From Deltaproteobacteria bacterium (GTDB lineage: Bacteria > Bdellovibrionota > FAC87 > UBA2466), in the NCBI GenBank assembly GCA_900299195.1, contig OMIX01000098.1:92342-156341 (forward strand): DNA of 64,000 bases, read 5' to 3'. The position numbers were made by a program, and so were the translations under genes. Shown here in pieces: positions 17,052 to 58,936 of this stretch (the stretch's first letter is position 1; each line of letters starts with the position of its first letter). The notes beneath the pieces were generated by a model, which was given only the letters and a program-made list of their open reading frames with translations, ran no database searches and was not told where the DNA came from.

Positions 17052-18423
17052 CAGCTTCTGGCATCACTTCGGGTAATGTTGGGTGCGTGTGAATCGTTCG
17101 CACTAAATCTTCCACCGTTGCTCCCATTTCAATCGCTAATGCAGCTTCGGCAATCAAATTTGAGGCCTCAGGCCCTACGATGTGAACCCCTAAAATAGCC
17201 TCGGTTTTGTCGTCGATAACAACCTTAACGAGACCATCCGAATCGTTCATCGCCAAGGCTTTTCCAGAAGCAGCAAAGGGGAACCTTCCAACTCTGACTG
17301 TAAATCCTTTTTCAGTGGCCTCTTTTTCGGTAAGTCCGGCAACTGCGATCTCTGGATCACAAAAGACCGCCCAAGGAACGGTTTTATAATCTTTAAACGA
17401 AGGCTCTCCTGCTATCGTCTGTGCTACCAATAAACCATCCATGGTTGCTCGATGGGCTAATTGCGGAGCCCCAGCAACATCCCCGATCGCAAAAATATGA
17501 GAAATATTCGTCAGGCTTTGGTTGTTGGTGAGGATATTCCCTCTGGGATCCAGCTTAATTCCAATTTTCTCCAAACCCATATTGTCTGAATTGGGTTTTC
17601 TTCCTACAGACACTAAAATGACATCGGCGGGTAGAGTAAGCTTCGATTTATCTTTTGTTTCAATTTCTAAATTGAGTTTACTAGCCTTTAAAGCATCCTT
17701 TTCTTTAATCCCCAGGGCTTTAGCACCCGTATGAACTGTGATTCCAAAGTGCTTCATTTTTTTTTGAACCACAGAAACTAATTCGTTGTCCACTGTAGCC
17801 AAAAGCTGATCGAGAGCTTCAACGATGGTCACTTTCGATCCTAGCTTCGCGTAAACAGTTCCAATCTCAATTCCAATAAATCCGCCACCAATCACCACCA
17901 TCTCTTTAGGAAGGTTTTTTAGAGACAGTGCTTCAGTAGAACTTACAATGTTCTTCCCGTTGAAGGGGAGAGTAGGAATCTGGGCTACCCGAGAACCCGT
18001 TGCGATCACAAAGTGTTTCGCAGTGACCGTTTCTTTTCCGCCGCTCGAAGTAATTTCAAGAGTTTTACTATCTTTAAAAGAAGCTGTGCCTTTAAGGATC
18101 TCAACGCCATTAGCCTTAAGAAGACCTTGAACTCCACTGGTGAGTTTTTTAACAACCCCCCCTTTCCACTCTTGCATTTTTTCCAGATCGCACTCTACTG
18201 ACTTTGCGGTAATGCCCATTTCATGGGCTTCGTTTTTCATCTTAAAAAACTGCGAACTTCCATAGATCAGAGCTTTGGACGGAATACAACCCACATTTAA
18301 ACAAACCCCACCAAAATTTTCCTTTTCGATAATGGCAGTCTTTTTTCCAAGTTGAGCCAATCGAATGGCCGTAGGATATCCCCCCGGGCCCGCTCCAATC
18401 ACCACAGCATCAAAAGTTTTCAT
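16999..18423 (-). CDS. lpdA: Dihydrolipoyl dehydrogenase (E3)
   Basis: VVIGAGPGGY FAD motif and the redox-active disulfide GGVCLNVGCIPSKAL. 474 aa. Confidence 0.9.
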   Translation of the reverse strand: MKTFDAVVIGAGPGGYPTAIRLAQLGKKTAIIEKENFGGVCLNVGCIPSKALIYGSSQFFKMKNEAHEMGITAKSVECDLEKMQEWKGGVVKKLTSGVQGLLKANGVEILKGTASFKDSKTLEITSSGGKETVTAKHFVIATGSRVAQIPTLPFNGKNIVSSTEALSLKNLPKEMVVIGGGFIGIEIGTVYAKLGSKVTIVEALDQLLATVDNELVSVVQKKMKHFGITVHTGAKALGIKEKDALKASKLNLEIETKDKSKLTLPADVILVSVGRKPNSDNMGLEKIGIKLDPRGNILTNNQSLTNISHIFAIGDVAGAPQLAHRATMDGLLVAQTIAGEPSFKDYKTVPWAVFCDPEIAVAGLTEKEATEKGFTVRVGRFPFAASGKALAMNDSDGLVKVVIDDKTEAILGVHIVGPEASNLIAEAALAIEMGATVEDLVRTIHTHPTLPEVMPEAVEAAFYKAIHIYKPKRG

Positions 18424-20698: not shown

Positions 20699-21919
20699 TT
20701 AAAGTGGAAATGCCTCACTGGTATTTTCAAACTTACCCCTAAGCTCGACTTCATGAAGAAGCTCCGCTTTTTGTTTTTTTAATTGAGGTGTCAGCTCGGC
20801 ATAAACGTCTTCAAAAAGATCCATCGGGTCTGGAGCGGGCTCTTTCTCTGCTCTTTCGACCGCTTCTGCAATCTGAGCTTTGATCTGCTCTTGAAGAGAC
20901 TTCTCTTTCTTTTCATCCCACCATTTCTTGCTGTTGAGATAATTTCTTAATCTCACAATAGGATCCCGTTTCGTCCAAGCTTGATATAATTTTTCATCAC
21001 GGTATCGAGTAGGATCATCTGAGGACGAATGCGGTCCCATACGAAAGGTCACACACTCAATCAGTGAAGGGCCTTCTCCACGTCTGGCCCTGTCCACCGC
21101 CTCTTTAGTCGCCGTATAAACAGCCAAAGCATCATTGCCATCAACGGAAACTCCAGGCATTCCATACCCCACCGCTTTATCGACGAGTCTTTTAGCTCCC
21201 GTTTGCTTAGAAAGGGGAACTGAGATCGCATATTGATTATTAGTCACTACAAAAACGGTGGGCGCCTTATAAGCGCCAGCAAAGGTCAAGCCAGTGTGGA
21301 AATCATTTTCCGAAGTTCCTCCGTCTCCACAATAACTAATCGCTATCTCTTTAGTTTTAGAAATTTTTGCAGCCATCGCAGCGCCCACTGCCTGAATCAA
21401 TTGGGTAGCAATAGGGCTTGAAACACTAAACATTTTTATTTTAGGAAAACTGTAATGAACCGGCATTTGCCTGCCTTTAGACAAATCACCTCGATTTCCC
21501 CAAAGGTTGCAAAGCATTTCGTACAATCCCGCACCTCGATATAGAAAAATACCCGGTTCGCGATAAGAGGGGAAAACCCAATCTTTTTCTAGTAAGGCCG
21601 CTGCCGTTCCGGTTTGAATGGCTTCTTGCCCAAAAGAGGGTACGTAAAAACCAATTCGTCCTTGTCGCTGAAGCATCATTCCTCGCTCATCAAAAGCGCG
21701 GGTTAACACCATATTGTGATACATTCTTAGGACAACTTCTTTATCGATCTTGGGTTCAACTTTAGAATCTACCGTCCCATCCTCTTTCATAATGCGAAAA
21801 CAGTCCTCTCTAAGAACTGTGCATTTTTCGGAGTCGCTGATAGTTTTACTTGGTTTCTTTTTCATTTCTACCGTTTGGCTTTTAGATTTTTTTTTCATTA
21901 AGTCGGTTCCTGAATTCAT
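20699..21919 (-). CDS. pdhA: 2-oxo-acid dehydrogenase E1 component, alpha subunit (pyruvate dehydrogenase type)
   Basis: ThDP-binding E1-alpha sequence (GDGGTSENDFH). ATG at 21919 lies 1 nt after the lipA stop; the ORF-track start of 21970 would overlap lipA. Confidence 0.8.
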   Translation of the reverse strand: MNSGTDLMKKKSKSQTVEMKKKPSKTISDSEKCTVLREDCFRIMKEDGTVDSKVEPKIDKEVVLRMYHNMVLTRAFDERGMMLQRQGRIGFYVPSFGQEAIQTGTAAALLEKDWVFPSYREPGIFLYRGAGLYEMLCNLWGNRGDLSKGRQMPVHYSFPKIKMFSVSSPIATQLIQAVGAAMAAKISKTKEIAISYCGDGGTSENDFHTGLTFAGAYKAPTVFVVTNNQYAISVPLSKQTGAKRLVDKAVGYGMPGVSVDGNDALAVYTATKEAVDRARRGEGPSLIECVTFRMGPHSSSDDPTRYRDEKLYQAWTKRDPIVRLRNYLNSKKWWDEKKEKSLQEQIKAQIAEAVERAEKEPAPDPMDLFEDVYAELTPQLKKQKAELLHEVELRGKFENTSEAFPL

Positions 21920-23549: not shown

Positions 23550-23942
23550 CTAAAGTGAAATATGCTGTCGGACTAAGGCGCGTTCTAACTTTAATTGTTG
23601 TTTTTTGAAATCGCTCTCGCTCAAAGTTCCCATCAACGCTTGTTCAGCGCGCTTCTGAGCGGCTTGAGCTCTAGCTTTATCGATATCTTTCGACTCTTCT
23701 ACCGTATCGGCTAAAACCAAAACTTTGTTGTTCCGTATTTCAGCAAACCCATAGCTGACAGAAAATTTGCGCTCTTTTCCGTCTTTAACGAAGACAAGCG
23801 GACCCGTACTCAGAAGCGTCAATAGGTCGGTATGCCCATCTAAAACCTGAAGTTCGCCTTTAGCCCCAGGTAACTTAACGCTATCTGCAGGGGCTCCATC
23901 GACCAACTTCCTAGTTGGGGTAACAATGTCTATCTTCAACAT
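23550..23942 (-). CDS. atpC: F1 ATP synthase epsilon subunit
   Basis: 130 aa, positioned after atpD; N-terminal beta-sandwich sequence MLKIDIVTP... Confidence 0.8.
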   Translation of the reverse strand: MLKIDIVTPTRKLVDGAPADSVKLPGAKGELQVLDGHTDLLTLLSTGPLVFVKDGKERKFSVSYGFAEIRNNKVLVLADTVEESKDIDKARAQAAQKRAEQALMGTLSESDFKKQQLKLERALVRQHISL

Positions 23943-23945
23943 GAA

Positions 23946-25379
<1,434 letters not shown>

Positions 25380-25391
25380 TTAAAACAAAAT

Positions 25392-26276
25392 TTATTTCAT
25401 GGCCTCTACGCCACCGACAATTTCCATCAATTCCTTCGTAATCGCTGCCTGCCGAGCTTTGTTGTAAAGCAATGTGAGATCTTCGATCATCTCTGATGCG
25501 TTCTTAGATGCATTTTCCATCGCTGACATTCTGGCTCCGTGCTCACTGGCAACCGACTCCAGAACACAGCGGAAAAACTGCATGTAAAAATGTTTGGGCA
25601 CAATATCGTTAAGAATTTCTTCTTTGGAGGGTTCAAAAATATAATTTTTAAACCTCTCGTCTTCGCCCACTTTTAAAATACCAACCACACCCTCAGGCAC
25701 TTCCGTGGCGACTGGAATCAATCGTTCGACAGTAACCCGTTGTTGGATTGCTGACTTAAATTCATTGTAAACAAGATAAATCGCATCAAATTCTTCTTTT
25801 AAATAGGCTTCTAGAATTTCGTGGGCGATAGCAGACGCTTTTGAATAGGTTACTTTAGAAAGCAGCCCCTCGTGATAACTTGAAATCGTATATTTCTTCT
25901 TAAAGAAGTCGTGTGCCTTTTTGCCAATGACGTCTAAAGAAACTTCAATTCCTGCAGCTTCTTTGGTTTTAATGAACCTTTGTGCTTCTTTAAAAACGTT
26001 TGCATTGAATGACCCGCACAGTCCCCGGTCTCCCGCCACAATGATCAATCTGATCTTTTTCTCTTCTCTGGAAACGAGAAGAGGGTGCTGGATTCCTTCC
26101 CGCTGAAACAAAGACAACAGAATGGAGTAGATCCGATAGGCAAAGGGGCGCGTACTCAAAATTGCGTCTTGAGCTCTACGCAACTTGGCCGCAGCGACCA
26201 TTTTCATCGCCCGTGTGATTTGCCTGGTATTTTGTACCGAGCTAATGCGTTTTCGTATTTCTTTACGATCAGCCAT
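25392..26276 (-). CDS. atpG: F1 ATP synthase gamma subunit
   Basis: 294 aa; MADRKEIRKRISSVQNTRQITRAMKMVAAAKLRRAQ is typical of the gamma N-terminus. Confidence 0.9.
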   Translation of the reverse strand: MADRKEIRKRISSVQNTRQITRAMKMVAAAKLRRAQDAILSTRPFAYRIYSILLSLFQREGIQHPLLVSREEKKIRLIIVAGDRGLCGSFNANVFKEAQRFIKTKEAAGIEVSLDVIGKKAHDFFKKKYTISSYHEGLLSKVTYSKASAIAHEILEAYLKEEFDAIYLVYNEFKSAIQQRVTVERLIPVATEVPEGVVGILKVGEDERFKNYIFEPSKEEILNDIVPKHFYMQFFRCVLESVASEHGARMSAMENASKNASEMIEDLTLLYNKARQAAITKELMEIVGGVEAMK

Positions 26277-26288
26277 GAAACTCTCTCA

Positions 26289-27797
26289 TTAAGCGAAGCT
26301 TGCTCCAAACTCTTCCAATGCTTTGACTAACACTGGCTTGATTTGATCATCGATAGCTTTCTTGGTTTTAATATCTTCTAGCAACTTAGGATATTTTTGT
26401 TCAATGAACTCAAAAAGCCCCTTCTCGTAAGCTCCCACTCTAGCTGTTGGGAACTTGTCCAAATATCCGTTGGTTCCGGCGTAGATGATTACCACCTGTT
26501 TTTCTACAGAAAGGGGAACGTACTGGCCCTGTTTTAACAACGCCACCATGCGCTCTCCGCGAGCCAATTGGTCTTGAGTTGCTTTGTCCAAATCAGAACC
26601 AAACTGAGCAAAAGCTGCCATCGCTCGGTACTGAGCTAAGGAAAGTCGTAAGTTACCAGCGATAGATTTCATCGCTTTGGTTTGAGCGCTACCGCCCACT
26701 CGAGAAACTGAAAGACCTACGTTAATAGCAGGTCGAACACCCGAGTAGAAAAGGTCTGTATCCAAGAAGATCTGTCCGTCAGTGATTGAAATCACATTGG
26801 TCGGAATGTACGCAGAAACGTCACCAGCTTGAGTTTCAATGATAGGAAGAGCCGTTAAACTACCGCCACCTTCTTTATCACTCAACTTCGCAGCTCGCTC
26901 TAACAAACGACTGTGAATATAGAACACGTCCCCAGGATAAGCTTCTCGTCCTGGTGGGCGTCTTAATAATAGAGACAACTGTCTGTACGCAGCTGCTTGC
27001 TTGGTCAAATCATCATAAACAATCAGCGCATGTTTTCCATTATCTCGGAACCATTCCCCCATGGTTACCCCAGCGTAGGGGGCAATATATTGAAGAGGAG
27101 CGGAAGCGCTGGCAGTTGCAGAAACCACGATGGTGTAGTCCATAGCACCTGCAGCTCTTAGTTTATCGACTACGAGAGCCACGGTTGAATTTTTCTGTCC
27201 AATCGCTACGTAGATACAGAAAACGCCCTGTCCTTTTTGATTAATAATGGTGTCGATTGCTATCGCGGTTTTTCCGGTTTGGCGGTCACCAATGATAAGC
27301 TCTCGTTGACCCCGTCCAATCGGAACCATCGCATCGATCGCCTTAATACCTGTTTGAAGTGGTTCACGAACCGATTGTCGCTTCACAATCCCAGGAGCTT
27401 TGATTTCTACGTTTCTAAATTCTTTTGATTGAATGGGTCCCATTCCATCGATGGGTTGTCCCAAAGCATTGACTACTCTTCCAACAAGAGCTTCGCCAGC
27501 CGGAACTTGTAGAATTCTTCCGGTGCGTTTAACCAAATCACCTTCTTTTACAGTGGTCACTTCTCCGAAAACTGCAACCCCGACGCTCTCTTCGTCTAGG
27601 TTCAGAACTACGCCATAAAGCCCACCAGGAAACTCCACCATTTCTCCGGCCATGGCTCCTTGAAGGCCATAAATTCTGGCTACCCCGTCACCGACATTGA
27701 GTACGGTTCCAGTTTCTGCAACTTGAACCTCTTTATCAAAGTCTTCGATGCGCTTTCTAATAATCTCACTAATTTCATCGGCGCGAATTTGTTGCAT
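26289..27797 (-). CDS. atpA: F1 ATP synthase alpha subunit
   Basis: P-loop [11 protein letters not shown]; 502 aa. Confidence 0.95.
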
Positions 27798-27808
27798 GTT
27801 TCCTCCAA

Positions 27809-28351
27809 TTAACCCGAAATTAAATTTTCTTCGAAACTATTTAACCAGCCCACCAAAGAGCCATCGTAGGTTCTGCCTCCGGCGGTGGCTTTAATTCCAC
27901 CAATAAGAGCCGGATCTACTTTGTAACTAGCTTCTACTTTTTTTCCTAAAATCTTTTGAAATTTATCTTCTATTTTTTTCTTCTCTTCACTCTCCAAAGT
28001 AGTGGCTGTCTCCACTTGAAGAGCAATAACATTAGCTGATTCTAAAAGAATCAACTGAAGACGATCTGAAATAGCACTTAAATGATCGAGTCTCTTTGCA
28101 GATGATAAGGTTAATAAAACCTTCAATGCCTCTGCAGATAGTTTTGCTTTGGAAACAAGCTCTTCTACTACAGATCTTCTCTCGGCCTCAGAGTAGACAT
28201 CGCTGGTTAAAACTAAACTCAGCTCATTGTGCCCCTCTAAAAGAAACGCGAAACCCCTTAACTCAGTGATCAAACTGCGGATCCGCGACTCATCTTTAAG
28301 ATAGTCGAAAATTGCCCTTGCATATCTTTGTGAAACTTTATCTTGTGCCAT
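27809..28351 (-). CDS. atpH: F1 ATP synthase delta subunit (OSCP)
   Basis: 180 aa, positioned between atpF and atpA; OSCP-like sequence. Confidence 0.75.
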
Positions 28352-28820
28352 GACCTACCAAATCTACAAATTCTGTTACAAGCTTGTGCTTTTCCTGTGC
28401 GGGTAAATGTTCACCCAAATAGAGTTCTGCAAGTTCAACGCTTCTTTCAATAGCCTCTTTCTGCAGTCCTTGTTTAGCTTTTAAAATTTCTCCCGAGCTT
28501 AAAAGTTCAGCTTCTTTTTTGATTCGTTCCGCTTCATGTTTAGCTTCGGTTAAAGTTTTTTCTCGAAACCTGATTAAGCTAGCTTCAGAGTCTTTCTTGT
28601 CTTGCAATGCGTGAGCTTGAGCTTGATTCCAATTATTTTCCCAAGTAGACAGCTCTTCATGCGCATTTTTTGCCATCTGTTCTGCCTCTGAAATTAAATT
28701 TTTCACACCTTCTGACCGAGCAGCCATAAAACTTGCAAAGGGTTTTCTTCCAAAAAAAACAAAAATGAAAACCACAACACTGAAATTTAAGATACTAGCA
28801 ATGACTACGTGTGCTTCCAT
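28338..28820 (-). CDS. atpF: Fo ATP synthase b subunit
   Basis: N-terminal TM helix followed by a long charged coiled coil. 160 aa. Confidence 0.7.
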   Translation of the reverse strand: MEAHVVIASILNFSVVVFIFVFFGRKPFASFMAARSEGVKNLISEAEQMAKNAHEELSTWENNWNQAQAHALQDKKDSEASLIRFREKTLTEAKHEAERIKKEAELLSSGEILKAKQGLQKEAIERSVELAELYLGEHLPAQEKHKLVTEFVDLVGHGTR

Positions 28821-28822
28821 CG

Positions 28823-29356
28823 TTATCCCTGAACCACCGGACGATTATTTAGGTTTTTTTTTACCCCAACATCGACTCCGGAAATTTTAACTGTTTTTCC
28901 GACAAGCTTACTGGCAATTCTGCTTGAGAAATCCGAAATCATTGGAGTGAGTTCATTTCTCACCTGAGAAACTTCTGTATCAATTTGTTTTCTTATCTCT
29001 TCCAGTTTTTGAGCCGCTTGATCACGAGCAGCCTGCACAAGTTTAGTTTCTTCTTCTGATATTTTCTTTTTTTCTTCATCTAACCACAGGGCAGTTTTTT
29101 TGTGCTCTGTCTTAATAAAGTTTTCGTAATCCGATTTCAGCTGCCCAGCTTTTTTCTTGGCTTCTTCAGCTTCTTCTTTCAAACCGTGAGTTTTGTGTTC
29201 GCGTATATGAATCAATTCCATTAGCGGTTTAAAAACCAAAAGTTTCATGACCATAAAACTGGCTAGAAAAAGACCTAGCTGGATCAAAAACTCGATAGCA
29301 AATTGTCTATTTAATACCAGCCCTTCCATTACTTCCATGGGATCCCTCTTAAACAA
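28823..29356 (-). CDS. Fo ATP synthase b' subunit (second b-type subunit)
   Basis: A second b-like protein (TM helix plus charged helix) immediately upstream of atpF. Confidence 0.55.
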   Translation of the reverse strand: MFKRDPMEVMEGLVLNRQFAIEFLIQLGLFLASFMVMKLLVFKPLMELIHIREHKTHGLKEEAEEAKKKAGQLKSDYENFIKTEHKKTALWLDEEKKKISEEETKLVQAARDQAAQKLEEIRKQIDTEVSQVRNELTPMISDFSSRIASKLVGKTVKISGVDVGVKKNLNNRPVVQG

Positions 29357-43757: not shown

Positions 43758-43758
<1 letters not shown>

Positions 43759-46274
43759 TGGAAACCACAGATTTACAGCTTAGTCAGGTCAGTATTGAAG
43801 ATCAAATGCGGGATGCGTACCTCGAATACGCAATGTCCGTGATCGTCGGTAGAGCTTTGCCCGATGTCAGAGACGGTATGAAGCCTGTTCATCGTCGTAT
43901 TTTGTACGCCATGTATGACATGGGAAATACTTACGATAAAGCTTATAAGAAATCTGCGAGAATTGTCGGTGACGTCATCGGTAAATACCATCCGCATGGG
44001 GATACTGCCGTTTATGAAACCATGGTTCGGATGGCCCAAGATTTCAGTATGCGGTACACCTTGGTGGACGGACAAGGAAACTTTGGTTCCGTAGACGGTG
44101 ATGCAGCGGCGGCAATGCGATACACTGAAGTAAGACTTGCTAAAATCACCAATGAAGTTTTAGCCGATTTAGAAAAAGAGACCGTCAATTTCAATCCAAA
44201 TTATGACAACTCTTTACAAGAGCCTGCGGTTCTTCCCACGAAAATTCCTAATTTGCTTGTGAATGGTTCCTCTGGAATTGCTGTGGGAATGGCTACTAAC
44301 ATTCCCCCACACAACTTGAATGAAGTGGTTGATGGGATCAAAGCGGTAGTGGCTAATCCATCCATTTCGATTTCGGAACTGATGCAAATTATTCCCGGTC
44401 CGGATTTTCCTACCGCCGGATTTATTTATGGCAGAAACGGACTGAAAGAGGCGTATCACACAGGTAAAGGCATTATTCATTTAAGAGCAAAGGCCGATAT
44501 CGAGGATGTGAAAAATGACAAACAACGTATTGTCGTTACGGAAATTCCTTATCAAGTCAATAAATCTAAGCTGATTGAAAGTATTGCTGAGTTAGTTCGA
44601 GATAAAAAAGTTGAGGGCATTTCTGATATCCGTGATGAATCGGATAGAACAGGAATGAGAATAGTTTTTGATTTGAAAAAGGGAGAAGATTCCAGAGTTA
44701 TTCTCAATCAACTTTACAAAAATTCCCAAATGCAAATTTCGTTTGGGATTAGCATGTTGGCTTTAGACCATCAGCAACCCAAACTTTTAAATTTAAAAGA
44801 ATGTTTAGTTGCTTTTCTACAACATCGAAAAGAGGTCGTCACAAAACGAACTGTTTTCGATTTAAGGAAAGCAGAAGAAAAAGCACACATTTTAGAAGCT
44901 TTAAAAAAGGCCGTTGAAAATCTTGATGAAGTCGTTTCCTTAATCAGAAAAGCGAGTAACCCGGCAGAAGCTCAAGAGAAGTTAATCGCCAAATTTAGCT
45001 TCACTGAAATTCAGGCTAAAGCCATCTTGGAGATGAGACTTCAAAGATTAACAGGCCTGGAACGTGAAAAGATCGTTGCTGATTACAACGAAACGATGGC
45101 CTTGATCGCAGATTTAAAATCGATATTGTCAGATGAAAAACGGGTTTTAGCGATCATTGAAACAGAGCTAGATGAAGTAAAAAAATCTTTCGGAGATCCA
45201 AGAAGAACAGAGTTTATTGAAGAACAAGAAGAGATGACCGATGAGGATTATATTGTTGAAGAAGAGATGGTCGTCACAGTTACCTACTCCGGATATATCA
45301 AGCGCTTACCCGTAGATGCCTATCGTTCCCAACGACGAGGAGGTAAGGGCGTTATTGGAGCGGCAACTAAGTCTGAGGATTTCATTCAAGATATTTTCGT
45401 TGCAAGCACACACGAAAACATTTTGTGTTTTACTGACCAAGGAAGAGTGTATTGGTTAAAAGTTCATAAGATTCCCGAAGCCGGTAGGGCGGCAAAGGGT
45501 AAGCCGATCGTTAACTTGTTGAATCTCACCACCAATGAACGGGTTCAAGCAGTTCTTCCAGTCAAAGAATTTAAAGAAACTGAATTTGTGACAATGGTAA
45601 CTCGACAAGGAACCATCAAAAAGACTTCGCTTGGGGCGTTTTCTCGGCCGATGAAAAAGGGAATTATTGCGATCACGACTGACGATGGCGACTCCTTGGT
45701 CGATGCAAAAGTCTGTAATGGAAGTAATCACATTGTTTTGGTCAGCAAATTTGGTCAAAGCATTCGATTTGAGGAACAAGATGTTCGGCCCATGGGTAGA
45801 ACTGCTAGGGGTGTGGCCGGCATGCGATTGGATGAAGGGGACATTGTGATCGGCATGGCAGTTGTGATGCCGGACGATAAAACAGCACAAGTTCTCACTG
45901 TGACTCAAAAAGGTTATGGGAAGCGAACGCTTTTAGACGAATACCGCGTTCAAGGTCGAGGCGGTTCCGGTGTGATTACGATGAAGATCACAGATAAAAA
46001 TGGACCGGTGGAAGCAGTTAGTCAGGTCAAAGACGAAGATGATCTTATTATTGCATCCGATCGGGGTAAGGTGATTCGAACTCGAGTTTCTGAAATTTCG
46101 GAGGTGGGTCGAGTGGCTCAGGGAGTGAGACTTATTTCCATGGATGACGGGGAAAGTGTAGGGGCTGTTGCAAAAATTGTTGAAAAGGAAGATGAGCACC
46201 CTGATCCCAAGGCTGCAGCCGTAGTTCCTGAAACAAGTCCTAAGACTGATGAGGGAACAGGTAATGCTAGTTAG
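43758..46274 (+). CDS. gyrA: DNA gyrase subunit A
   Basis: [23 protein letters not shown] with the active-site Tyr region, plus C-terminal beta-pinwheel repeats. 838 aa. Confidence 0.95.
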
Positions 46275-47048
46275 AGTTTTTTTTTAAGTCTTCTCGTCGT
46301 TTTTCTAGGGTGTACGCAACAAAAACAGGAGAAGTTATTAGAAGCCGCGGAGACTAAACTGACCGAGGGCAAATACTCGGAAGCTACTGAACTGCTTCGC
46401 AAGGTTATTTCTTTAAATCCAGAAAACAAACTGGCTGTTAAAGCAATGTTCAAGTTAGGTTTTACTTTAGAAACCTACGGGAGAGACTACGATGGGGCTG
46501 TTTTTAATTATCAGGAAGCCATTCGTTTAAGCCAAGACCCTGTTTCAGTGTATGAAATTCAAAAGCGAGTGGCTAATATCTTTTTCGAGCAGGGCAAAGA
46601 CATTGATAAGGCAATAGCCGCTTACAAGAAACTTATTTCATTTAACCCAAAAAGCCTAGAGCTCGACTTTTTTCAATTTCGAACAGCAGAAGCCTATTTT
46701 CGTCAGAATAATTTTGAACAGGCCAGAACCGAGTACCAGCTTATTTTAGAAAATTTTCCTAAAAGCCAATATATTGCAAAGAGCCGTTTTGAAATTGGAA
46801 ATACTTATTACATGGAGGGCAAGTATGACATTGCTCTCGAAGCTCTAAAGCAGGTAGGAAGATACCATCCCCAAACGGAATATGCAGTTGAAGCCGAGTT
46901 TTTAATTGCCCAATGTCTTGAACAAACACAGAAAGAGCAAGCTGCGATTCAAATTTACGAAAACCTCAAAAATCGATATTCGAATCCAAAAATCATCGAA
47001 TATCGAATTGATCAATTAAAGAAAAGGGTCAGGAAGGGGCCTAAATGA
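46264..47048 (+). CDS. TPR-repeat outer-membrane lipoprotein (BamD-like); the start is reachable only through a +1 or -2 indel in a T9 tract
   Basis: The frame of ORF 46446-47048 is open back to 46275. It encodes ...[14 protein letters not shown] (a signal peptide with an LxGC lipobox) but has no in-frame start codon. The ATG at 46264 is in another frame and joins the main frame if the T9 run (46277-46285) is T10 or T7. Confidence 0.45.
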
Positions 47049-47266
47049 TTAAGCTAGACGGCAAGAAAATTAGAATAGCGATGATGATGGGAAATGCAGT
47101 GATGACCAAAGCCATCATGATCGCTGCCGGATGGTATTTCGGGAGCAAACTGGACAAAAAATATGGTACGGAGCCCTATGGGATGGTTGGTCTGGTGATT
47201 TTAGCCATGATTTTAGGGGTATGGTACATCCTGAGGGTCGCCAAAAAAAATAATTTAACGGATTGA
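47045..47266 (+). CDS. AtpI/AtpZ-like small membrane protein of the ATP synthase operon
   Basis: 73 aa with two TM helices, immediately upstream of atpB. Its start overlaps the TPR gene stop. Confidence 0.5.
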   Translation: MIKLDGKKIRIAMMMGNAVMTKAIMIAAGWYFGSKLDKKYGTEPYGMVGLVILAMILGVWYILRVAKKNNLTD

Positions 47267-47280
47267 TACCCGAAATTAGG

Positions 47281-47335
47281 GGGTTAATAGTTAACGATCA
47301 ACCCTGTTGACAGGGTTAATAGTAAACGATCAACC
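47281..47335. repeat. Two 23-bp direct repeats GGGTTAATAGT(T/A)AACGATCAACC flanking a TTGACA hexamer upstream of atpB
   Basis: Copies at 47281-47303 and 47313-47335, with TTGACA at 47307-47312. Each copy contains the inverted repeat GTTAA-TAG-TTAAC. Confidence 0.5.
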
Positions 47336-47431
47336 GGTAAATTTTTTGAATTACCTAATTGATTGAATCTTTATTGAAATATCAAAACATTGGTTGTATG
47401 ACAGGGTGTTCAAATTGGGAGTTATTAAAGC

Positions 47432-48160
47432 ATGCAAAGTCATGGTTCAGCACATCATGGTCCTGAAAGCTGGTTAACTAAGCTTCCTATACTTCCGCAG
47501 GATCGAGCTTGGGAAAGTGTTAATGGTGCGATTCTTGTATTTGTATTTATTTGCCTAGTTTCATGGATAGTAAACAGGGTAATTAAAGGAAAAATCGCAG
47601 AAAACGTGGTTCCTAGGGCCAAAATTGGACTTTTTTCGGTGGTCGATTTGTTGGTTGAAGGGCTTTACAATTTGATTGTTGGAATTGTTGGACATCATTA
47701 CGGTGCTGACGCCTTTCCTTTTATTGCCTCTGTTTTTATTTACGTTCTTCTTAACAACCTTTTAGGGTTATTGCCTCTTTCGGCTTCTCCAAGTTCCTCT
47801 TTCCCTATAGCCTTCGCTTTAGGGTTATCCAGCTTTGTTTTTTACAATTGGATGGGAATTAAGGCCAACGGAGTGGCTGGTTATGGTAAGCATTTTTTGA
47901 TGGGTCTTGGGGTCTTTGGGGTTCCGATTGCTGCTTTCGAGTTAGTCTCACATGTGATTAGGCCTTTTACTTTGGGATTACGGTTAAGAACCAACATGCA
48001 TATTGATCACATGTTGGCTGGGGCATTTGCTGACCTTTGTAAATGGATTGTTCCTGTTCCGTTGTTGCTTTTTGGAGTAGTGGTCTGTACGATACAGGCC
48101 TTTCTTTTTGCGGTTTTGACAGCTGTTTATGTACAGATGGCAACTGAACACGAAGAATAA
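47432..48160 (+). CDS. atpB: Fo ATP synthase a subunit
   Basis: 242 aa polytopic protein with the conserved Arg region LGLRLRTNM. Confidence 0.9.
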   Translation: MQSHGSAHHGPESWLTKLPILPQDRAWESVNGAILVFVFICLVSWIVNRVIKGKIAENVVPRAKIGLFSVVDLLVEGLYNLIVGIVGHHYGADAFPFIASVFIYVLLNNLLGLLPLSASPSSSFPIAFALGLSSFVFYNWMGIKANGVAGYGKHFLMGLGVFGVPIAAFELVSHVIRPFTLGLRLRTNMHIDHMLAGAFADLCKWIVPVPLLLFGVVVCTIQAFLFAVLTAVYVQMATEHEE

Positions 48161-48180
48161 CTTTTTTTAGGAGGTAAGGT

Positions 48181-48501
48181 ATGAAGTTAATCAATATGTC
48201 TAAGTTGGCGTTAATCGGAATGTTCATCTCCTCAGCAAGCGTATTTGCAGAAGAAGGTGCTCATGCAGTAGCTACTGGTGGAGCCGCTGGCCCATTAGCA
48301 GTTGGTTTGGCTATGGCTTTAGCAGTTATTGCTGCAGCGACAGCCCAAGGTAAAATTGGTACAGCTTTTATGGATGGCGTTTCCAGAAATCCTGGAGCTC
48401 AAAAATCCATGTTCGTTCCATTGATTCTTTCCTTGGTTTTCGTCGAAACCTTGGTGCTTTTTACCTTCCTAGTAGCTCAAAGCTTACTTGGAAAATTCTA
48501 G
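48181..48501 (+). CDS. atpE: Fo ATP synthase c subunit with an N-terminal signal-like extension
   Basis: The C-terminal 75 aa form a typical c-subunit hairpin (GAAGPLAVGLAMALAVIAAATAQG ... LVFVETLVLFTFLVA). It is preceded by about 30 aa, MKLINMSKLALIGMFISSASVFAEEGAHA. Confidence 0.85.
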   Translation: MKLINMSKLALIGMFISSASVFAEEGAHAVATGGAAGPLAVGLAMALAVIAAATAQGKIGTAFMDGVSRNPGAQKSMFVPLILSLVFVETLVLFTFLVAQSLLGKF

Positions 48502-48545
48502 ACTTTTTTCTTAACGGTCTAGGAAATCAATTTTTAAAACCATCT

Positions 48546-48574
48546 GCACTCTCGAGTGCGGGTGGTTTTTTTTT
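48546..48574. terminator. Rho-independent terminator candidate between the convergent atpE and uvrA genes
   Basis: GCACTC-TC-GAGTGC inverted repeat followed by GGGTGG and a T9 run. Confidence 0.55.
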
Positions 48575-58123: not shown

Positions 58124-58936
58124 ATGAAAAACCTTCTCTTCATTGTCAGCGTTTTTGGTTTAGCTACTTCAATTGCCGTAGCAAAAAATTCTTCGAACCT
58201 TAATCGAGGAGGCTTTGGTTTTTTGTTTCCCGATGCCAATTCTTTTATTAACGGTGGGCAGATGGCCCAGACTCAAGGAACAGCCGTTGAAGGTTATTAC
58301 GAGCGTAATGATGGGTCAGATGTTCAAACGGCCACCCCCTCGGTAGTATGGGGTTCGGGAAGAGTTGGTTTGGGAGCTTTTGTTTCCAGAACAGGAACAG
58401 AACTCACGGGCAATAATGGTGGTAACTCAGATTCTGTAGGTGCTGGATTAGGAGTAAGTTTAGCCTCTGGTAAGGTAACTGTGGGCGGCACAATCCAAAG
58501 AAGTATTGATACTGCGCAAACCGATGATGGAACAGTGACCGCTGCTCTAAATTACAATGGAGCAAAGGGTCAGGGATTTCATATGGGGGGGGGATTTAGC
58601 ACGACGTTAAACAGTGTTTCTGGAACCGATTTGAGAACTGCTATTTTGGCTTTGGGATGGGGATTTGGCGGCATGGCCTCTTTTGAACTGAATTATAAAT
58701 TAAAAGATTTAGACCAAACCAGTAACAACTATGTGGCTGGCGGGTATTTAAACTTTGGGGGAAATAATTACTATCTTTCCTCAGGGTATAGCTACGACAA
58801 GCCGTCAAATTTGAGTACTGTAGCAGGTCGTTTGGGTTATATTGCTGGCAGCATCGACCTCTCCGTTCATGCTGAACACATCATGGCAGATGGGCAAAAC
58901 CCATCATACGGAGCGACACTCCGAACAACATTCTAA
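58124..58936 (+). CDS. Gly-rich outer membrane beta-barrel protein
   Basis: Signal peptide, alternating hydrophobic pattern and a C-terminal aromatic residue (RTTF). Confidence 0.5.
   Translation: MKNLLFIVSVFGLATSIAVAKNSSNLNRGGFGFLFPDANSFINGGQMAQTQGTAVEGYYERNDGSDVQTATPSVVWGSGRVGLGAFVSRTGTELTGNNGGNSDSVGAGLGVSLASGKVTVGGTIQRSIDTAQTDDGTVTAALNYNGAKGQGFHMGGGFSTTLNSVSGTDLRTAILALGWGFGGMASFELNYKLKDLDQTSNNYVAGGYLNFGGNNYYLSSGYSYDKPSNLSTVAGRLGYIAGSIDLSVHAEHIMADGQNPSYGATLRTTF

Follow-up and report, generated by a model that had tools for sequence, protein, structure and literature searches.

A lipoprotein gene with tetratricopeptide (TPR) repeats, whose start overlaps the end of gyrA in a Bdellovibrionota genome, is split between two reading frames at a run of nine T residues, and this frame break is real. 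Comparison with related genomes suggests that the gene is most likely expressed through programmed slippage, by RNA polymerase or by the ribosome. The reading that we favor, with a probability of roughly 0.6, is that of a conserved recoded gene in which RNA polymerase slips on the T9 run and adds one U. The window, by which we mean the whole 64,000-nt stretch of DNA that was analyzed, has a GC content of 42%, and the T9 site is its sole broken open reading frame (ORF). The features at the junction are as follows.

43758..46274, + strand: gyrA, which with its final codons overlaps the lipoprotein gene's start; stop codon TAG at 46272-46274; orthologues match Pfam DNA_topoisoIV and DNA_gyraseA_C.
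46251..46255, + strand: Shine-Dalgarno-like GAGGG, 8 nt from the ATG at 46264; an equivalent GAAGG, GAGGG, or AAGGG is present in 12 of 13 lineages.
46264..46287, + strand: 0-frame mini-ORF from ATG to TAA, encoding MLVRVFF*, which corresponds to the positively charged n-region and the beginning of the h-region of a signal peptide.
46277..46285, + strand: T9 tract, the candidate slippage site; the sole block of nine invariant columns in the junction alignment, including U_UUU_UUU in the 0 frame.
46285..46287, + strand: 0-frame stop codon TAA directly 3' of the tract; TAA in 11 lineages, TGA in L025, absent only in L014.
46284..47048, + strand: body of the TPR lipoprotein in the -1 frame; entry Leu codon TTA at 46284-46286, lipobox Cys codon at 46311-46313, stop codon TGA at 47046-47048.
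47045..47266, + strand: atpI-like gene (PF09527), whose ATG overlaps the TPR stop codon (ATGA), an arrangement kept in relatives.

Translation from the ATG at 46264-46266 reads ATG CTA GTT AGA GTT TTT TTT TAA, and the TPR frame, open from 46275 through its stop codon, lies at -1 relative to this ATG. The initial annotation had placed a start codon at 46264, overlapping the gyrA stop region, with exactly T9 at 46277-46285 and a downstream frame open from 46275, and all of these coordinates were reproduced when the sequence was re-read. It had also described the lipoprotein frame as lacking a start codon of its own; accordingly, no ATG, GTG, or TTG was seen in that frame upstream of ATG 46446. 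Its frame arithmetic proved correct as well, as T10 (or T7) in place of T9 joins ATG 46264 to the lipoprotein frame and yields the fused N-terminus that it had predicted, the correct fused product being a pre-lipoprotein of 261 residues. A second in-frame ATG at 46249 is an alternative upstream start of the mini-ORF, with ATG 46264 having the better Shine-Dalgarno sequence. The heptamer U_UUU_UUU, which conforms to the X_XXY_YYZ pattern, occupies 46278-46284 in the frame of ATG 46264.

The same layout is common to 13 Bdellovibrionota lineages (61-82% protein identity, ~30 loci, many metagenome samples). In 13/13 lineages, the gene's start codon overlaps the 3' end of gyrA, no fewer than nine T follow, and the body is read in the -1 frame; an immediate 0-frame stop comes after the T run in 12, and the correction needed to join the frames is identical in all 13 (+1 nt, that is, a -1 frame move). 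The run is T9 or T10 throughout, shorter runs never being seen, and the distance from its 3' end to the lipobox Cys codon is a constant 26 nt; no other invariant block exists in the junction alignment. In L001 and L014, the run is T10 because the preceding G became T, a flanking change that kept the out-of-frame relation and thereby points to the frame relation itself as a target of selection. Synonymous codons that would interrupt the tract, TTC and CTN among them, do not occur in any of these lineages, even though synonymous sites are saturated between lineages, and the chance of an uninterrupted tract is P ~0.11 per lineage even with V-F-F-L held fixed. Conserved ORF organization together with a conserved 9-mer in non-identical homologues has been proposed as the mark of functional slippage sites (Baranov et al. 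2005; PMC1088944), and both are seen in the 13 lineages at their 61-82% identity. The two overlapping ORFs also give, on fusion by ±1 nt (here one added T), a product homologous to single-ORF proteins: more distant relatives (L015, L016, L017, L047, and P0008-P0011) encode the same protein in a single ORF with an ATG overlapping the gyrA stop. In a neighbor-joining tree, the T9 lineage L025 falls outside the main clade, which points to a history with losses or a second origin. Our literature search returned no report of a T9 site in a gyrA-adjacent lipoprotein gene, nor of recoding in Bdellovibrionota.

Substitution patterns indicate strong purifying selection on the gene body. Across lineage pairs, dN ranged from 0.08 to 0.36 with dS saturated in all but one pair, so that dN/dS by the NG86 method was not computable for most pairs; the only pair with a value, L012/L028, gave a dN of 0.016 and a dN/dS of 0.07. 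Conservation is high across the 45 residues that separate the lipobox Cys from the internal Met, and the invariant positions upstream of this Met are C13, Q18, E39, N48, and P49. A lipoprotein signal peptide of the PROSITE PS51257 type comprises an n-region with K/R, an uncharged h-region, and the lipobox [LIVMFWSTAG](2)-[LIVMFYSTAGCQ]-[AGS]-C, with the Cys at about residue 15-35. By this rule, a valid signal peptide is predicted for the fused product only: all 18 of the 18 fused sequences conform, with K/R within the first 7 residues and the Cys at 17-21, and the unfused frame has either no start codon or just 4-7 residues ahead of the Cys, the latter from in-frame TTG starts picked by gene callers. 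The lipoprotein and TPR nature assigned by the initial annotation is thus upheld, Pfam TPR families also matching the product. Regarding a closer identity, Pfam YfiO scored 28.3 against a cut-off of 25 in a partial match over profile positions 9-95, while TIGR03302 (66.1) and YbgF TIGR02795 (80.4) remained under their cut-offs of 81.4 and 90.1, respectively. One source calls an orthologue BamD, and in our structure comparison BamD was not the closest match as against generic TPR proteins. The BamD-like label of the initial annotation is at most tentative.

The initial annotation had offered a homopolymer indel error or phase variation as the cause of the break. An error of sequencing or assembly, with a true T10 tract and an ordinary ORF, draws on the general error-proneness of homopolymers and on a T10/T11 disagreement between assemblies L001 and L011, from which it is evident that calls can differ. 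However, the error would have to recur in ~30 loci of 13 lineages drawn from MEGAHIT, SPAdes, Logan, and JGI assemblies of differing samples and species, and this recurrence of one out-of-frame layout excludes it for practical purposes. All other homopolymers of at least 8 nt in the window lie either within an intact frame or between genes and break no ORF, so a general proneness of the assembly to indels does not account for the break, and an independent assembly of the window species (L060) carries the same T9, with 5 SNPs in 2603 nt and no gaps. True phase variation, by replication slippage between T9 (OFF) and T10 (ON) with most of the sampled populations OFF by chance, would be in keeping with a T9-T11 run as a mutational hot spot and with envelope lipoproteins as a class that is often phase-varied, the poly-A tract of Mycoplasma p78 being an example cited in PMC3711429. 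One population does show T10 in L001 and T11, which is in frame, in L011/L035, in contigs otherwise identical over 5746 nt; this suggests either that some tract heterogeneity exists or that the tract is hard to call there. Nevertheless, T11 is the sole ON allele found, on one contig against ~30 OFF loci in the 13 lineages. The comparison of tract lengths across related strains that had been suggested as a check gave a constant, gap-free T9 among strain-level variants of 0.1-6% divergence (L005 against L006-10 and L038; L002 against L034; L012 against L036, L058, and L028; the window against L060), including all eight strain variants of the UBA2466 lineage and variants of three other lineages, and the T10 lineages hold the same frame relation through the flanking substitution. 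A gene left OFF would also decay, yet dN/dS is far below 1 and the body contains no stops. We therefore consider ON/OFF switching improbable.

An account with no recoding at all is less credible still: the protein would begin in the -1 frame itself, either from a non-canonical codon or from ATG 46446, or the gene would be a pseudogene with the mini-ORF as a leader peptide. In relatives, gene callers did output proteins of 200 aa beginning at the internal Met, or short TTG-started ones. However, from the gyrA stop to the internal Met, ATG, GTG, and TTG are all absent in the window, L001, L014, and L028; the TTG-started products fail the lipobox rule; and the stretch from the Cys to the internal Met, with its invariant residues, is strongly conserved. 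The 0-frame peptides, moreover, carry K/R in all lineages, as an n-region would, although they overlap the variable gyrA tail. Read-through of the gyrA stop codon was considered, as the body shares the gyrA frame, and was rejected because the signal peptide would be buried behind 838 residues. A different objection applies to -1 programmed ribosomal frameshifting, in which tRNA-Phe would slip on U_UUU_UUU, aided by slow decoding of the adjacent 0-frame stop, while the mRNA stays U9. Every lineage has the perfect heptamer in the 0 frame, the stop directly follows it in all but one of them, and the product would be the same as that from a U10 mRNA. What is missing is a stimulator: the single-sequence fold downstream of the site had an MFE of -12.1 against a shuffle mean of -16.1 (z = +1.48), RNAalifold found 0 pairs across 12 lineages and hence no conserved hairpin or pseudoknot, Rfam gave no match at E <= 1 over 45800-47600, and 22 nt, rather than ~10 nt, separate the heptamer from the only upstream Shine-Dalgarno-like element. 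In E. coli, unstimulated heptamers shift at well under 1%, at most ~10x a 0.055% background (PMC4066793). L014 dispenses with the adjacent stop, and at least nine T are kept in all lineages though seven would suffice. Ribosomal frameshifting as the principal route thus appears unlikely, albeit the most plausible of the alternatives.

Transcriptional slippage, the route that we favor, is consistent with the length of the run, since slippage sites of this class have thresholds of n > 8 for Tn and n > 7 for An (PMC3711429), and T9 lies above the former in 13/13 lineages; at Shigella spa13, such slippage reaches 25-30% (PMC5009743). However, tract length cannot separate transcriptional from ribosomal slippage, because T9 is also explained by the heptamer plus protein constraints, its 5' T falling at position two of a hydrophobic codon and its 3' T opening the stop. 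In the coding sequence of the window, A runs of at least 9 were weakly depleted (3 observed versus 6.9 expected in a codon shuffle) and A6-7 runs were in excess. Three in-frame A9 runs lie within housekeeping-type genes of the window; efficient slippage on 9-mers would be costly to those genes, which counts against a slippage reading. An intrinsic terminator or promoter at the T run was also scanned for and dismissed, there being no hairpin ahead of the run and no promoter-like site nearby; a real terminator is located at 48536-48574.

We propose ATG 46264 as the start of translation, with initiation there probably coupled to termination at the gyrA stop 8 nt further on. Ribosomes reading the templated mRNA would terminate once seven codons had been translated. 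A complete pre-lipoprotein, in which TQQ... follows the fused N-terminus, would arise only after a -1 frame move on the T9 run. In the favored scheme, the nascent U-run on the A9 template, which would fill the 9-10 bp RNA:DNA hybrid, is realigned by RNA polymerase and one non-templated U is added, so that a fraction of the mRNAs carry U10 and are in frame, as for the T9 of Shigella mxiE. An identical protein would result from a -1 slip of the ribosome, in which the two tRNA-Phe shift on U_UUU_UUU ahead of the 0-frame stop, and this may contribute. The site would thus build in a sub-stoichiometric level of the lipoprotein relative to GyrA and, through coupling at the ATGA, of AtpI as well. That slippage occurs, at which level (transcription or translation), and with what efficiency, we infer from the comparative data.

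Several known systems resemble this site in part. In endosymbionts, polymerase infidelity at poly(A) tracts reportedly rescues frameshifted genes (Tamas et al. 2008), with an example in Blochmannia (PMC3017870). As there, a broken but needed gene would be kept working by slippage on a long homopolymer, with the broken state retained over evolution; endosymbiont genomes, however, are AT-rich, drift-dominated, and contain many such tracts, in contrast to a single broken ORF at 42% GC in the window. In Shigella flexneri mxiE/spa13, programmed transcriptional slippage on T9 or an A-run fuses two overlapping ORFs, according to the accounts of Penno et al. (2005, 2006) given in PMC1088944 and PMC5009743. 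The two cases share a sense-strand run of nine T, a longer functional product that needs one non-templated U, and no required RNA structure. Unlike in mxiE, the T9 run here falls at codons 5-7, within a lipoprotein signal peptide, so that the unshifted product is only a peptide of 7-12 residues; the gene is also chromosomal, lies beside gyrA in free-living freshwater Bdellovibrionota, and is kept in 13 lineages. Transcriptional slippage on A9 in Thermus thermophilus dnaX and on A9/A10 in IS elements (Baranov et al. 2005, PMC1088944; Antonov et al. 2013, PMC3711429) likewise makes expression hang on a 9-mer homopolymer, with conserved ORF organization as the diagnostic criterion, but those sites yield two useful proteins (tau/gamma; OrfA/OrfAB), whereas only the shifted product looks functional here. 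The p78 lipoprotein of Mycoplasma fermentans, phase-varied through poly-A (Theiss and Wise 1997, as cited in PMC3711429), also has a homopolymer in the 5' coding region of an operon-heading lipoprotein gene; its tract length differs heritably between ON and OFF clones, in contrast to the OFF-frame length fixed across strains and species here. With E. coli dnaX and IS911-type -1 frameshifting, the site shares the 0-frame X_XXY_YYZ heptamer and the -1 direction, but not the downstream structure or the Shine-Dalgarno sequence ~10 nt upstream.

To our knowledge, ordinary chromosomal genes offer few conserved recoding sites, the known ones being prfB, dnaX, the mxiE/spa genes, and some IS-derived cases. 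The T9 site adds a conserved chromosomal candidate with clear comparative support, in an unusual place, within a signal peptide at the end of gyrA and next to the replication origin. Gene callers mis-annotate this lipoprotein gene clade-wide, either N-terminally truncated at 200 aa or TTG-started without a signal peptide, and a frameshifted homopolymer in a metagenome-assembled genome is not necessarily an error or a pseudogene.

The initial annotation had the gene heading an atpI-atpB-atpE operon. This holds for atpI, whose translational coupling to the TPR gene is likely given the ATGA overlap at 47045-47048, but atpB follows only after a 165-nt spacer. Speculatively, and with little probability in our estimation, the T9 run may be a regulated device rather than a constant leak, one in which the supply of the next nucleotide (A in 12/13 lineages) and of UTP sets the in-frame mRNA fraction, reporting the nucleotide or energy state. 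If so, the amount of lipoprotein made would follow that fraction, as would, via the ATGA overlap, the amount of AtpI, whose gene stands first among those for the membrane sector of the ATP synthase, and the site would constitute a nucleotide-sensing transcriptional recoding switch within a signal peptide. The spacer upstream of atpB holds a TTGACA hexamer and repeated boxes.

The ORF list and direct translation bore out the arrangement described in the initial annotation, namely a start codon overlapping the gyrA stop, a T9 run, and an open frame lacking a start codon, located within the origin region (dnaA, dnaN, gyrB, gyrA):

43758-46274, + strand: gyrA, with stop codon TAG at 46272-46274
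46251-46255: GAGGG, 8 nt 5' of the ATG at 46264
46264: ATG in the +1 frame relative to the overlapping gyrA tail, reading ATG CTA GTT AGA GTT TTT TTT TAA (MLVRVFF*)
46277-46285: T run, exactly T9
46275-47048: lipoprotein body, continuing in the gyrA frame
47045-47048: ATGA overlap between the TPR gene stop and the atpI-like gene (PF09527)

No ATG, GTG, or TTG occurs in the body frame of the window ahead of ATG 46446, and a second ATG in frame with 46264 is present at 46249. Of the proposed BamD-like TPR lipoprotein, the TPR assignment held, with matches to TPR families; the YfiO/BamD match was marginal, and the BamD and YbgF NCBIfam matches were below threshold. The atpI-like gene is followed by the genes for ATP synthase a and c.

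A protein search with the repaired lipoprotein sequence as the query yielded 86 relatives, and comparison of their DNA revealed that the gene order gyrB-gyrA-TPR-atpI-atpB-atpE is kept. Relatives at about 60-65% identity possess normal signal peptides (e.g., MRKVALILAVLFLLGC), and the gene calls of the closest relatives give 200-aa products from an internal Met or use starts that place 4-7 residues ahead of the lipobox Cys (MLLAFVGC, MFLFGC, MLASC). One junction design is common to 13 lineages, all of them Bdellovibrionota represented by MAGs or contigs of lake and groundwater origin (L numbers denote relatives' loci or contigs; L060 is an independent assembly of the window species): window/L060; L001; L002/3/4/33/34; L005-10/13/38 (UBA2466); L012/36; L058; L028; L014/39; L037; L056; L057; L059; and L025. 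In this design, a start codon over the last gyrA codons (ATG; GTG in L001) opens a short K- or R-containing peptide in the 0 frame (MLVRVFF, MRIRVFF, MIRTKVFF, MQSRVFF, MVPRFFF, MRVPIKVFF, MAVRIFF, MPRILLKTVFF, and others). The run is T9 except in L001 and L014, where a T in place of the preceding G makes it T10, and a 0-frame stop lies directly 3' of it (TAA in 11 lineages, TGA in L025, none in L014). The lipoprotein body occupies the -1 frame in all 13 lineages, the run always stops 26 nt short of the Cys codon, and the correction needed is +1 nt every time, equivalent to a -1 frame shift. The fused product conforms to the lipobox rule in 18 of 18 tabulated sequences, with K/R no later than residue 7 and the Cys at position 17-21. 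A neighbor-joining tree placed 12 frameshifted lineages in a monophyletic group, with L025 outside. More distant relatives (L015, L016, L017, L047) likewise carry an ATG over the gyrA stop (GGNAATGCNTAA), but their frame is continuous and their junction has no T run.

Recurrence of the same layout across lineages excludes a sequencing or assembly error as the cause of the frame break, and with it the indel error that had been one of the two original explanations. Aligned over 2603 nt, the window and L060, which comes from a freshwater metagenome, show five mismatches, no gaps, and an identical T9. Of the 20 window homopolymers of at least 8 bases, all but the junction T9 are intergenic, in the atpE/uvrA terminator, or in frame inside intact ORFs (including three A9 and one G9). 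The strong hairpin followed by T9 at 48536-48574, between atpE and a convergent uvrA-like ORF, is a probable bidirectional intrinsic terminator, which gives the other intergenic T9 of the window an ordinary explanation. By a terminator/promoter scan, the junction T9 belongs to neither type of element.

The T9 block is the sole invariant stretch of columns in the junction alignment, its flanks varying freely. Residue conservation is not expected at all in the h-region of a signal peptide, and the probability of spelling V-F-F-L with T9, estimated from window codon usage, is about 0.11 per lineage. Between lineages, synonymous sites were saturated and dN was 0.08-0.36 in all pairs but one; the measurable pair, L012/L028, gave a dN of 0.016 and a dN/dS of 0.07. 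The segment from the Cys to the internal Met also contains invariant positions. The lipoprotein gene is under strong purifying selection.

The other original explanation, phase variation switching the gene ON or OFF through tract length, is disfavored because the OFF-frame length is constant across strains and species, the gene is under strong purifying selection, and what the T10 lineages keep is the frame relation, not the tract length. The suggested comparison of tract lengths across strains showed T9 kept, with no gaps, at 0.1-6% divergence within lineages. The only evidence for length variation, and the only disagreement seen, comes from one population, in which L001 (Logan; 2831-2840) has T10 out of frame and L011 (2019-2029) and L035, deposited as a MAG contig and the metagenome contig from which it derives, have T11 in frame; this one tract base is the sole difference in 5746 nt without mismatches. 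The tract in this population is either heterogeneous or hard to call.

The remaining reading is that expression of the lipoprotein gene depends on slippage, and the junction layout qualifies under the criterion of Baranov et al. for functional slippage sites. At the T run, RNA polymerase could insert an extra U, generating an in-frame lipoprotein mRNA, or a -1 ribosomal slip could occur on U_UUU_UUU ahead of the 0-frame stop; both routes would produce an identical lipoprotein. The transcriptional route is favored because every one of the 13 lineages keeps at least nine T's, within the Tn, n > 8 length class of T-run slippage (PMC3711429); because no downstream RNA structure was detected at T9 (fold z-score, +1.48; RNAalifold across 12 lineages, 0 pairs; Rfam search of the junction region, 0 matches); because E. 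coli heptamers without stimulators reach at most about ten times the 0.055% background (PMC4066793); and because Shigella spa13 slippage yields 25-30% (PMC5009743). Tract length is not decisive, since the outer two T's are explicable by a 5' hydrophobic codon and the 3' stop codon.

Among known systems, Shigella mxiE (PMC1088944) comes closest; there, one extra U on a T9 run gives the longer functional product. Unlike mxiE, the Bdellovibrionota site lies at codons 5-7, inside a lipoprotein signal peptide; without a shift, its product is a peptide of 7-12 residues; the gene resides on the chromosome, adjoins gyrA, and belongs to free-living hosts; and the site is kept across 13 lineages. A literature search found no published report of it. 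The evidence is comparative throughout; the site is of interest to recoding specialists and useful for MAG annotation.

At several Pseudobdellovibrionaceae loci (L018, ~2990; L020/L045, ~2985/1485; L021, ~3000; L024, ~1715), the conserved start codon over the gyrA stop (GGNAATGCNTAR) is ACG instead of ATG, and the nearest in-frame ATG is some 25-30 codons farther upstream, within gyrA, implying either a long n-region or non-canonical initiation.

Other long in-frame runs and ATP synthase features of the window were as follows:

17757-17765, 21887-21895, and 28854-28862, - strand: A9 runs in housekeeping-type genes, one within a dihydrolipoamide-dehydrogenase-like ORF and one directly 3' of the start codon of an E1-component ORF (MKKK)
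58585-58593: G9 (…HMGGGFS…) inside ORF 58124-58936 (270 aa; no Pfam match), a candidate slippage or phase-variation tract
23550-29356, - strand: ATP synthase b, alpha, and beta
47045-48501, + strand: atpI, a, and c, following gyrA and the TPR gene, about 18 kb from the former set

A runs of at least 9 in window ORFs numbered 3 against 6.9 expected (codon shuffle, P about 0.05), with A6-7 runs in excess, a weak sign of selection against long runs in this genome. In the atpI-atpB spacer, a TTGACA (47307-47312) sits between two direct repeats of 23 nt (GGGTTAATAGTWAACGATCAACC) that are spaced 32 nt apart (window, 47281-47335). In relatives, the boxes are paired and palindromic (GTTGAT-N8-ATCAAC) at the same 32-nt spacing (L001, 3836-3891; L002, 3987-4046; L012, 4015-4067). 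The arrangement resembles a conserved double operator ahead of atpB.
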